Below, piece after piece: positions 27,001-30,000 of a stretch of DNA of 64,000 bases. The stretch is from IMG/VR virus record IMGVR_UViG_2718218100_000003. One strand, given 5' to 3'. The DNA is from a virus (taxonomy: Duplodnaviria; Heunggongvirae; Uroviricota; Caudoviricetes). The position numbers were made by a program. How positions within the stretch are numbered: the stretch's first letter is position 1; every line of letters begins with the position of its first letter.

Positions 27001-30000
27001 ACTTTGTTAGCTACATGATGCGGAACTCGATCATGCAGGCATTCATGGACATGGCAAAAGCCGAGAGGAAAGAAGAGCGCCGGCGTAAGCGAGCGGAAGC
27101 AAAAGCGAAGTAGCCATTACAAAGCCCATCTACTGGTGGGCTTGATAATGGCTTATACCCTACACGGGATAACTTAACTGATATCCCTTTTAACGGATAA
27201 AGGTATTCAAGCCTGACACATCATGCGCTGTATCGTCGCTGTATTTCCGCATTAACCATGACCGTAGCCCGACGGGGAATTCCTTCTGCGCGAGTGTGCG
27301 GGGATAATCAAAAACGATACACACCGGGGTTTACCGCGTAAACGGAGCGCGGCGTTCTCCCCTCATGGTCGCCCGTCCGGTGCGATGGTGGAAGAAACTG
27401 GAATCTGTTCAATAAAAAAACTGCCGTGTTGGAGTCACAGCAGTAATGTACTGATTGGGTAGAAGATTATTATTGTTATGCTTTATTTTTATTCTATATG
27501 GCTGATTATTTCAATTCGGAATTAATACAGCTAATGTCTGTGATTTTTTATAAATTCAGCAATATAAAGAAATAGTTATATGAACAGCCATCGCAGAGCA
27601 TACTGTGTATCATTCTTTTTTATAGTCAACTGACGGGCATATTTTATGTCTGCTGCCAGCTCCCGGCGGCAAGATTCAATGACCCACGCAGAAAAATTTT
27701 CTGAACCTTTCTGGTCAAGAGCGATGTTAATTTGTTCAATCATCTGGTTTGGAAATCGGATGTTGCGGGTTGTTGTTCTGCGGGTCCGGTTTTTCGATGA
27801 CATTTTCTTTCCTCTGGTGACAAGTTATATGGCGAGGATTTTACATGGCTGTGCTTCGTACGTTACCGGGCAGAATCAAAACTCTGAACACCCGGCGGGT
27901 GAATGTCCTGAAGGGTGAACAGCGTCGTGTCAGTGGCAGTGCCCGGGTTTCCCTCAAGCGTCGTATCTGGCTCAGGGATGCCGGACAGTGCTGTCTCTGT
28001 GGGCGTGTGGTTGACCTTTGTGACAGTGAACTCGATCACCGCATTGCACTTCAGTTCGGTGGTGGTAATGAGGAGACGAATCTCTGGACGCTCTGTACTG
28101 AATGCCATCGCCAGAAGTCAGTCAGTGAAACGGCGAGTGGTATGCCGGACCCGACGCTGCCGGAGGTGTCCGGAGGTCATGGCAGGGCAGACGATATCAT
28201 CGGACTGTGACCCGCCCTGGGGGGGGGGATCATCCGGCGAAAAAACGATCGCCCCGGACACCGCCCCCCGTCTCACGCAGAGAAAAAATTCCCGTTTCAG
28301 GGCAGTTAACATGTTAACTGGCTGCCCGGGCATTTTTGCGGTTTTTATCTTTATTATTCAGTTTGTTGTGCGGAAAAAATGTTAACAGGCTTTTTCAGCA
28401 AATGTTAACCAGGCAGCAGTTAACATTTGCGGCATGAGACGCCGGGAAAAATGGGCTGAACCATACCCGGCTGAGTGCGTTCTGGACCCGGGAGGAGGCT
28501 GTGCTGACAACGCAAAAACGAAAATTTGCGCTGGCGCTCATGTCCGGGAAAAACAAAACAGCGTCAGCCATTGCCGCCGGTTATTCGGCGAAGACCGCCA
28601 GGGTTAAAGGCTCGCAGCTGGCAAAAGATCCTGAGGTGCTTGCGTTTATAGCCCGTAAACAATGCGAGACGGTGGAGGTGGATGAGGTTCCTGTTTACCG
28701 GCAGAAAAAATCAGAGCAGGAGGATAAACCCCGTCGCCGTGAGGCGGCTGCAATACCACAGCCGGACGAAAACAATCTGGAGATGCCACCGTCCGCGGTG
28801 ATGTCTCCTGGTATTGAATATATGGAGGATGGTCTTCCCGATCCGGTGAAAGCCATGGGGCGGATCCTGGTGGAGAACATTAATACCGACCCCAGGCTGG
28901 CGCTGGATGCGGCTTATAAGCTGGCGCAGTTCACGCACCACAAAAAAGGGGATGCCGGTAAAAAATCGGCAAAAGGTGACGCGGCGAAAAAAGCGGCTAA
29001 CCGTTTTGCGGTGCCACCACCACCCCGCCTGGTGGTGAATAATGATAATGAGGGCAACGGATGATACCTGTGTGGAGCACGGCCTGCCCGGACTGGGCAG
29101 AGCGCCTGAAAAAGGGGCTGTCGATTATTCCGGCTCCGATTTATCCGGAGCAGGCCGCACATGCCCTGGCGATTTTTAAACAACTGCGGATTGTGGATGC
29201 ACCGGGCAGCCCGACGTTCGGGGAGTCCTGCGCACAGTGGGTGTTTGACCTGGTGGCGGCCCTGTTTGGCTCCTACGATGCGCAGACCGGTGTACGCCAT
29301 ATCAAGGAAGTTTTTATCCTTATCCCCAAGAAAAACAGCAAGTCCACGCTGGCTGCCGGGATCATGATGACGGCGCTGTTACTGAACTGGCGGCAGGCGG
29401 CGGGCTACACCATTCTGGCCCCGACCGTGGAGGTGGCGGCTAACGCCTTCAACCCTGCCAGGGATATGGTACGACGGGACGATGATCTGGATGACCTCTG
29501 TCAGGTGCAGACACATATCCGGACCATCACCCACAGGGTGACGGACACCACCCTGAAGGTGGTGGCTGCCGATCCGAATACGGTATCCGGTATCAAGTCC
29601 GTGGGGACGCTGATTGATGAACTGTGGTTATTTGGCAAGCAGTACAAAGCGGAGGACATGTTACGTGAAGCCATAGGCGGCCTTGCCTCCCGCCCGGAAG
29701 GGTTTGTGGTGTATACGACCACCCAGTCGAATGAGCCGCCAGCCGGGGTGTTCAGACAGAAACTGCAGTACGCCCGGGATGTCCGTGACGGCAAAATTCA
29801 TGATCCGCACTTTCTGCCGGTGATTTTTGAGCATCCTCCTGAAATGGTGGAAAGCGGGGCTCACCTGCTGATGGAAAACCTCGCCATGGTTAACCCGAAT
29901 CTCGGTTATTCGGTGGATGAGGCTTTTCTGTACCGGGAGTACCGTAAAGCCCGGGAGGCTGGTGAGGAAGCATTTCGTGGCTTCATGTCAAAACATGCCA

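Follow-up and report, generated by a model that had tools for sequence, protein, structure and literature searches.

How does a packaging terminase find the place at which it cuts the DNA of its phage? The question is raised by a 290-bp spacer (positions 28211–28500) in a stretch of 64,000 nucleotides from a Caudoviricetes virus (IMG/VR record IMGVR_UViG_2718218100_000003; this whole stretch is called the window below), which lies between a gene for an HNH endonuclease and the gene for the small terminase subunit (terS). A preliminary description of the sequence had noted in this spacer nested GTTAAC palindromes beside a G homopolymer of about 10 nt, and had taken it as the expected place of a cos site with its terminase-binding elements. 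We arrive at the reading, to which we give a probability of roughly three in four, that a lambdoid Shiga toxin (Stx) prophage of the Pankowvirus type has here the cos region of its packaging system, one of HK97 style with HNH assistance and 3' cohesive ends, and that TerS reads an array of five sites within it. This is an ordinary cos site, an expected element in its expected place, resolved here to the base level, and it does not overturn current understanding. It does provide a simple and testable model of how cos specificity is coded outside lambda, possibly one that satellites have pirated. The cohesive end of this phage type is already published (PMC7946995); for the GTTAAC array, its co-variation with TerS and the satellite variants we found no description in the searchable literature text, and one may exist elsewhere.

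The motif cluster itself is far from a chance arrangement. GTTAAC occurs in the spacer at 28305, 28313, 28381, 28404 and 28419, so that 5 of the 19 sites of the 64-kb window fall within 120 bp. With the other 14 sites of the window as background rate, the Poisson probability of at least five sites in 120 bp is ~1e-10 per position, and ~7e-6 after multiplication by all start positions. The extended unit AAATGTTAAC is present in three local copies and GTTAACAT in five, with one other copy in the rest of the window. The palindromes turned out to have somewhat longer arms than first described (one 18-bp palindrome, and one pair of 12-nt arms around N9). The homopolymer is exactly G10 (28219–28228), the only G run of at least 7 in the window; the C run is C6 (28264–28269), and the GC content of the interval is 41%, against 51% for the window.

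Position of the cohesive end

The cut was placed along two lines. Firstly, Zhang et al. (2021) induced Lys8385Vzw, an Stx1 siphophage closely related to phage 1717, and PhageTerm classed it as a phage of the cos type whose cohesive ends are 3', the cos sequence being CGCCCCCCCT (PMC7946995); the passages searched in that paper report only this 10-nt sequence and mention no flanking sites. The GenBank record of Lys8385Vzw (MT225100) ends with ...GGACACCGCCCCCCCT (also ...GATCGCTCCGGACACCGCCCCCCCT), and its first bases, CTCACGCAGAGAAAAAATTCCCGTTTCAGGGCAGTTAACATGTTAAC (also CTCACGCAGAGAAAAAATTCCCGTTTCAGGGCAGTTAACATGTTAACTGG...), are the window sequence from 28272 onward. Secondly, the 9-nt 3' overhang GGACAGTCT of the Xanthomonas phages Xp10 and Xop411 was determined experimentally (PMC2248197). 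The Xp10 record ends with this overhang and starts with CCCATTCGCAGAAAAATTACCC. The sequence that follows the overhang, CCCATTCGCAGAAAAATT, aligns without gaps to the window's CTCACGCAGAGAAAAAATT, and in the alignment with the window block CTCACGCAGAGAAAAAATTCCC the top-strand nick coincides with that of Lys8385Vzw. The nick position from Xp10, an independent line, was derived before the Lys8385Vzw ends were found.

The published ends of the sibling phage and the homology to a mapped relative thus support the prediction that the cohesive end of the window (cosN) is 28262–28271 on the plus strand, a 10-nt 3' overhang of sequence CGCCCCCCGT homologous to the final 10 nt of Lys8385Vzw, and that the left chromosome end starts at 28272. 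Because the Lys8385Vzw and Xp10 ends place the overhang there, the poly-C tract of the preliminary description is the cohesive end itself. Its proposal of a cos site with terminase-binding elements is hence supported, the near-identical phage Lys8385Vzw having 3' cos ends at the homologous position, but in a refined form: the cut lies in the C-rich tract 28262–28271 and not in the palindromes, and the GTTAAC array becomes the candidate cosB-like, terminase-binding part. Termini elsewhere, or the circularly permuted ends of headful packaging, would have spoken for another arrangement; the opposite was found, namely defined cohesive ends at this very place in the sibling phage. The exact cut also gives the correct origin for phage genome records.

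One IMG/VR contig starts exactly at TCTCACGC (28271), two end with ...TCTCA(C) and one stops just before GGAC; these are isolate-assembly breaks in a multi-copy region, with other breaks scattered, and are weak evidence. The partial record of Pseudomonas CF121c was dropped as an anchor because its end is artefactual, as were Burkholderia phiE125 and phi1026b, whose cos and TerS are of another type without similarity. The Pankowvirus papers on phi330 and phiSTEC799 report no end mapping, and the discussion of cos by Asadulghani et al. (2009) is limited to the lambda-type cos of Sp4 and Sp14.

The overhang is the more variable part of the site and its flanks are better conserved. In E. coli relatives the overhang alleles are CGCGCCCCCT (164 copies), CGCCCCCCCT (44 copies) and the window's own CGCCCCCCGT (37 copies), while more distant phages carry unrelated overhangs between conserved flanks. 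Upstream of terS the core has a fixed architecture: a G run, ~30 nt, GGAC(A/C)C, 8–10 variable bases, and (T/C)CTCA(C/T)GC(A/G)(C/G)AGAAAAAAT. This core (poly-G, ~33 nt, GGAC, overhang, CTCAYGCAGAGAAAAAAT) is common to many enterobacterial prophages and Xp10. It is kept in ~47 sequence classes, including 20 other Enterobacterales species, and is also found in Salmonella phage FSL SP-016, in many IMG/VR contigs and in phages with an unrelated type of TerS. The left flank of the cut, CGATCGCCCCGGACAC (28246–28261, plus strand), includes GATC and GGAC and is conserved in relatives; GGAC also stands at the Xp10 and phiL7 ends. The right flank, CTCACGCAGAGAAAAAATTCCC (28272–28293, plus strand), forms the first bases of the virion left end, at which the Lys8385Vzw record starts, and is the most widely conserved block, common to the phages with unrelated TerS, Xp10 and phiL7.

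The poly-G tract (28219–28228, plus strand) lies 33 nt left of the cohesive end, and a G run is found at the same distance in enterobacterial relatives, satellites, phiL7 and Xp10. Its length ranges from 5 to 13 with a mode of 7–8 among 115 distinct related versions, which puts the window's 10 at the long end and agrees with the earlier remark that the homopolymer is a potential slippage or assembly-error site. By its position, poly-G is a candidate for a termination-side element like lambda cosQ.

Within the left flank, CGATCGC (28246–28252) contains a Dam GATC 10 nt left of the cohesive end and is conserved in most enterobacterial relatives, the Xp10 form being ATGATCGCC; a methylation-sensitive step at this GATC is conceivable. 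A remnant of poly-G (...AAAGTAACGGGGGATCATCC) borders directly on ISEc20, an element of the IS110 family, in the PPompW prophages (L367:1046-2510; LC567822 with six further records like it). These prophages are without lysis genes and HNH; they have therefore kept cosN and cosB and lost the left-side elements and HNH.

The GTTAAC array and its co-variation with TerS

What would read this site? The GTTAAC array lies 34–160 nt inside the left chromosome end, and its elements, counted from the TCTCA block (28271) across the top-strand nick, stand at +34 to +153. Site 1 (28303–28320, no strand assigned) is a perfect 18-bp palindrome, CAGTTAACATGTTAACTG, which contains two GTTAAC and is invariant in diverged spacers. 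A T-rich segment follows (28333–28364, plus strand; T-tracts at 28333, 28342, 28350 and 28362) between site 1 and sites 2–4, and the segment is still rich in T in diverged relatives as well as in satellite L178. Site 2 is a single AAATGTTAAC (28377–28386, plus strand). Sites 3 and 4 (28398–28430, no strand assigned) form an inverted repeat with perfect 12-nt arms, GCAAATGTTAAC (28398–28409) and GTTAACATTTGC (28419–28430), 9 nt apart. When five diverged spacers of the GTTAAC type were aligned (window, L171, L245, L174 and L264), all 30 GTTAAC columns were invariant, against 50 of the 111 other columns (Fisher p = 2e-9).

A second motif class is rare: 11 of the 5426 complete E. coli genomes have it, and its three examples L175, L177 and L490 are diverged from one another. 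In this GTTTAY lineage every homologous position that is held carries GTTTAT, GTTTAC or GTAAAC, L177 holding only sites 2–4: site 1 becomes ATAAACATGTTTAT, site 2 AAATGTTTAT, and sites 3 and 4 AAATGTTTAC-N9-GTAAACATTT. A search of viral contigs with the GTTTAT-type site 1, an unspecific pattern, gave 120 matches, none with the core. The TerS proteins of this lineage have E25, S32 and C35, against A25, T32 and V35 in all GTTAAC types; the N-terminal 60 residues of L174 TerS are at least as diverged overall, yet T32, V35 and GTTAAC are kept. An AlphaFold2 model of TerS (predicted local distance difference test 92–95 over residues 1–50; helices 4–14, 19–25, 33–41 and 44–55) superposes on the SF6 small-terminase DNA-binding domain 4zc3 with a template modelling score of 0.84 and a root-mean-square deviation of 1.6 Å over 56 columns. 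In this model, the first helix of the helix-turn-helix closes with residue 25, the second contains residues 35 and 38, and residue 32 stands directly before the second. Motif class co-varies with residues 25, 32, 35 and 38 of the modelled helix-turn-helix, which indirectly supports the predicted recognition by TerS. Most likely, TerS binds the AAATGTTAAC units through this domain, and the array fits a cis-acting, cosB-like counterpart read by TerS between cosN and terS.

The array has a history that suggests a different explanation. All short-spacer relatives have GGAGGGTGT(A/T)AAC ATG TTA ACA GCG CAG AAG, where GGAGG is the ribosome-binding site and ATG TTA ACA codes for TerS Met-Leu-Thr. In the Escherichia lineage, ~185 bp (28319–28500) lie between the relic of this start and the present one, GTG at 28501 with a new Shine-Dalgarno sequence. 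Because the short-spacer relatives start TerS at the relic position and Escherichia has moved the start downstream, the first palindrome represents the start codon that terS had ancestrally. A single site overlapping that start seems to have been the source from which the array grew in the Escherichia lineage, and the extra GTTAAC copies may have arisen by duplication of the segment, since a mini-open reading frame at 28402 (MLTRQQLTFAA) resembles the TerS N-terminus. The copies could then be non-functional relics of a tandem duplication of the terS 5' end (the ~185-bp insertion), with the real cos needing the conserved core only. It is true that ATGTTAAC is the terS start codon after GGAGG in all short-spacer relatives, that three copies of ATGTTAAC open mini-open reading frames of which MLTRQQLTFAA recalls the N-terminus MLTTQKRKFALA, and that short-spacer phages function with one palindromic site. 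Yet the sites are invariant while the intervening sequence diverges, and in the GTTTAY lineage the five have changed in concert, the relic start that no longer codes among them. Two of the sites are moreover reversed and form perfect inverted repeats, which duplication of a start codon would not yield, and the array is retained in an island (L264) without terS. We consider it unlikely that the copies are mere relics, and an origin by duplication is in any case compatible with a present function. As a side observation, the relic ATG opens a 24-codon hydrophobic open reading frame, MLTGCPGIFAVFIFIIQFVVRKKC (28311–28385), without a Shine-Dalgarno sequence; in the phage 2851 record, the annotation 'putative secreted protein' falls under the part that matches 28150–28560 and possibly refers to this frame, which is probably not a gene.

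The distance of the first site from the nick is conserved across motif classes. Across four motif classes (GTTAAC, GTTTAY, GTTACA and GCGAAC) the first site stands at +30 to +40 from the TCTCA block, and at +33 to +40 in 10 of 11 loci; a second group of sites follows from about +110 to +300, and with a short spacer some of these fall within terS. The short-type relatives also have GTAAAC at +262, which was not counted as a site, being probably coding (Val-Asn in NVNTP). The GCGAAC class comes from four IMG/VR loci (L206, L248, L254 and L257) with an unrelated TerS (MASRKSTIDW...REIADRHEISDTAIRKRA) and the same cos core, whose repeat GCGAAC/GTTCGC stands at +30 to +40 and again, clustered, at +208 to +245 within terS. 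In the short-spacer relatives (L003, L089–L107), a second GTAAAC, GTCAAC or GTTAAC is fixed at -33 from the TCTCA block at the nick. This site partly co-varies with the one at the terS start (GTAAACAT with GTAAACATG; GTCAACG with GTTAACGTG), and that of the window has decayed to GCGAAAAAAC.

These distances bear on a further alternative, in which the array serves the expression of terS and terL, as an operator of TerS or another protein, a translational leader or a nucleoid-protein site, and is not a packaging signal. The array does lie in the 5' untranslated region of terS and is AT-rich (41% against 51% GC), and the short type has its palindrome across the start codon, which would suit autoregulation ideally. 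A scan of the interval for terminators, however, found none, a scan against Rfam gave no family match, and the single promoter-like site matches the count expected by chance. L264 carries the array with no terS downstream, and the repeats of other TerS families stand at the same distance from the nick, partly within terS coding sequence, and are therefore tied to the cut site and not to the gene start. We regard a role confined to expression as quite improbable; autoregulation could coexist with a cosB role.

Several points weigh against recognition of the array by TerS at a cos site as we propose it. The end position comes from PhageTerm on a sibling phage and not on this prophage, which is not necessarily inducible. 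There are only three motif classes, and so few independent events behind the correlation of motif with TerS, and among the HNH proteins compared, too, that of the GTTTAY lineage has diverged furthest (79% identity). The sites are spaced by 8, 68, 23 and 15 bp without obvious helical phasing. Short-spacer relatives have one palindromic site plus the one at -33; as they manage with a single palindromic site, five sites are no requirement of the family. Finally, the integration host factor (IHF) consensus WATCAANNNNTTR was not found within 28211–28500 with up to one mismatch, unlike in lambda cosB, and for this reason we propose, with low confidence, the T-tract segment as a candidate intrinsic bend in place of the lambda IHF site.

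From the comparative evidence, and by analogy with lambda and HK97, we infer the following order of events. TerS (28501–29064) would bind the five AAATGTTAAC-type sites (28303–28430) on concatemeric DNA via its N-terminal helix-turn-helix, the T-tract segment interrupting the array and probably bending the DNA. Bound TerS would recruit and position the large terminase (TerL), with the HNH endonuclease (27845–28210) assisting, and two nicks 10 nt apart, at 28261/28262 and 28271/28272, would leave the 3' overhang CGCCCCCCGT. Packaging would run rightward from 28272 via terS and the head genes and would terminate at the next cos, where the left-side elements (poly-G, CGATCG and GGAC) would be read.

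Satellites and islands with the same core

The core is also present in elements that are not complete phages. Satellites with their own TerS paralogue (P0059 and P0053; S38W, and GWQL against GSQL in the same helix) keep the cosN core and have, at the same positions, GTTACA(C) repeats in place of GTTAAC, including an inverted pair and a T-rich segment. In E. coli assemblies, L168–L170 represent satellite-like islands that encode a primase (D5_N/DUF5906 or AAA_25) and contain small open reading frames and a 307-aa capsid-like gene. Their TerS paralogue P0059 (162 aa; gene 1501–1989) has 47% identity to the window TerS and 243 cluster members. Upstream of it lie the window-type cosN core GGACACCGCCCCCCGTCTCA and two copies of AAAAGTTACAC, not GTTAAC, and five more GTTACA lie inside terS. 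L178/L179, also from E. coli, is an island remnant with AlpA and the 157-aa TerS paralogue P0053, beside an AIDA/pertactin autotransporter gene; its long spacer follows the layout of the window (core, site, T-rich tract, inverted pair) with GTTACA(C), one AAATGTTAAC being retained. The class of L168- and L178-like islands is present in hundreds of assemblies.

These satellites bear on whether the palindromes could instead be recognition sites of the adjacent HNH endonuclease, restriction- or homing-like, and not sites of TerS. GTTAAC is a classical 6-bp palindrome, the HNH gene adjoins it, and the divergence of the GTTTAY-lineage HNH protein given above would fit such a role. L168 and L178, however, have no HNH gene nearby and nevertheless pair their own repeat class with their own TerS paralogue, and the mapped cut is at least 34 nt from the nearest GTTAAC. 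The gp74 protein of HK97 is a non-specific stimulator of TerL cleavage. Taken with these observations, recognition of the palindromes by the HNH protein is very improbable.

L264 (4174–11730; IMG/VR, E. coli) shows the complementary arrangement: the full set of five GTTAAC sites is there together with poly-G and the core, and neither an HNH gene nor terS adjoins them. As it keeps the array without a neighbouring terS, the array is a cis element and not a terS leader. Ahead of these elements the island encodes a D5_N primase and SSB, as well as a major capsid protein like lambda gpE and a decoration protein like gpD; an autotransporter gene is adjacent. It is a candidate cos-only satellite of Pankowvirus-type helpers; its lambda-type capsid genes are an odd mismatch to the HK97-type genes of the helper.

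A broader idea, which we hold to be tentative and somewhat short of even odds, is that the array forms a specificity module that can expand, that evolves jointly with the recognition helix of TerS and that is a battleground of phages and satellites, L264-like islands copying the sites and L168/L178-like islands swapping TerS together with the array. If this were true, the L168/L178-like islands would redirect an HNH/HK97-type cos machine, as a cos analogue of the TerS swap of the Staphylococcus aureus pathogenicity islands (SaPIs) and an alternative to Rpp, and packaging specificity would be reprogrammable with about three residues and a 6-bp motif. In the known cases, the phage-inducible chromosomal island (PICI) EcCICFT073 (cos1/Rpp) and SaPIbov5, the satellite keeps the cosN (and cosQ) of its helper and may have its own cosB, read by a satellite DNA-binding protein. 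The islands related to the window match this logic, L168/L178 through their own TerS paralogue with GTTACA and L264 through copies of the phage sites. The differences are that EcCICFT073 exploits lambda-type helpers with 5' cos and that Rpp is not a TerS paralogue, that SaPIbov5 is staphylococcal, and that the islands here are known from their sequence alone. The cos cut and the likely TerS sites show which defective prophages and islands a resident helper can package, a question that includes the cos-only islands and the prophages whose cos is broken by ISEc20.

Flanking genes and known packaging systems

The region is a widespread prophage module. A stretch of 716 bp around the spacer has 99.6% identity to the Stx2 phages 1717, Stx2a_WGPS8 and others, and 92.5–99% identity to the Pankowvirus phages 2851, BP-4795, YYZ-2008 and phi330; nearly all of the 93 matching phage records contain it with at least 90% identity. 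Among the 5426 complete E. coli genomes, 1254 contain it at the same threshold, with a median of two copies and up to 8 per genome. Given this wide occurrence, the region is a real and common prophage module, and thousands of independent copies rule out an assembly artefact as its source. Pankowvirus-type prophages carry stx1, stx2a or stx2c and are found, often in several copies, in about a quarter of complete E. coli genomes.

On the plus strand the gene order is contiguous: HNH endonuclease, the 290-bp spacer, terS, an HK97-type terL, a protease-capsid fusion and the portal. The HNH endonuclease gene (27845–28210, plus strand; PF01844, E = 2e-6; phrog_589) is directly upstream of cos, like in HK97 and Xp10, and by analogy its product is presumed to be an accessory nuclease for cos cleavage. 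TerS (28501–29064, plus strand; PF03592, E = 1.5e-8) has an N-terminal helix-turn-helix DNA-binding domain, and these two matches confirm the placement of the spacer between an HNH endonuclease and a small terminase. The terS gene is preceded by the Shine-Dalgarno sequence GGGAGGAGG (28490–28503 with the GTG start, plus strand), the conserved N-terminus MLTTQKRKFALAL starting at GTG 28501. TerL (29061–30722, plus strand; PF03354 and PF20441) is an HK97-type ATPase plus nuclease, with 50–59% identity to the TerL of Xanthomonas phages phiL7/MK21 and of Pseudomonas and Klebsiella phages.

The closest systems are the Pankowvirus Stx phages (Lys8385Vzw, MT225100; 1717; 2851; BP-4795; YYZ-2008), whose HNH-cos-terS region is 92.5–99.6% identical to that of the window; Lys8385Vzw differs from it in the overhang (CGCCCCCCCT against CGCCCCCCGT) and in poly-G (G7 against G10). 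HK97 has 10-nt 3' overhangs, TerS-dependent arrest at cos and cleavage stimulated by the HNH protein GP74 (PMC9410871), and the part of that text available to us names no TerS sites. It shares with the window the order HNH, cos, terS, terL, the 10-nt 3' overhang and a TerL of the same Pfam families, but differs in TerS family and cos sequence, the window also having a prohead protease fused to its major capsid protein. By gene order, TerL family and end structure the site is a member of the HK97-style, HNH-assisted 3'-cos class. The Xanthomonas phages Xp10, Xop411 and phiL7 likewise have the G run, ~30 nt, GGAC, the overhang, C(C/T)CA(T)TCGCAGAAAAATT and an HNH gene at the right end, and the TerL of phiL7 is 53% identical to that of the window. 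In contrast, the Xp10/Xop411 overhang is the 9-nt GGACAGTCT, Xp10 has the downstream repeat GGCCATTTCC twice, and all three phages are virulent, with T7-like replication and transcription genes.

The likeness to lambda is one of layout. Lambda too has an upstream element (cosQ), staggered nicks and, upstream of terS, an array of TerS sites with a bendable segment after the first site; its cosB consists of R3, I1, R2 and R1 (PMC6739421), and the GTTAAC array of the window occupies the cosB position. Lambda, however, has a 12-nt 5' overhang, a gpA-type TerL, gpNu1 as a winged-helix TerS, an IHF site and no HNH gene, against the 10-nt 3' overhang, HK97-type TerL, Terminase_2 TerS and HNH gene of the window, and there is no sequence similarity. 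The site thus works like a lambda cos without being a member of that class, because overhang polarity and length and the terminase families differ. TerS also matches the family of the SPP1/SF6-type pac systems (PF03592, SF6-like domain), but the ends reported for Lys8385Vzw are cohesive and not the permuted ends of headful packaging.

Two features of the downstream head genes were also observed. A single 645-aa open reading frame (30786–32723) fuses a prohead serine protease (PF04586) with an HK97-fold major capsid protein (PF05065). The portal open reading frame (32935–35436) is unusually long, at 833 aa, and its C-terminal extension carries 3.3 near-perfect tandem copies of a 162-bp (54-aa) unit with 96% matches (34522–35054).

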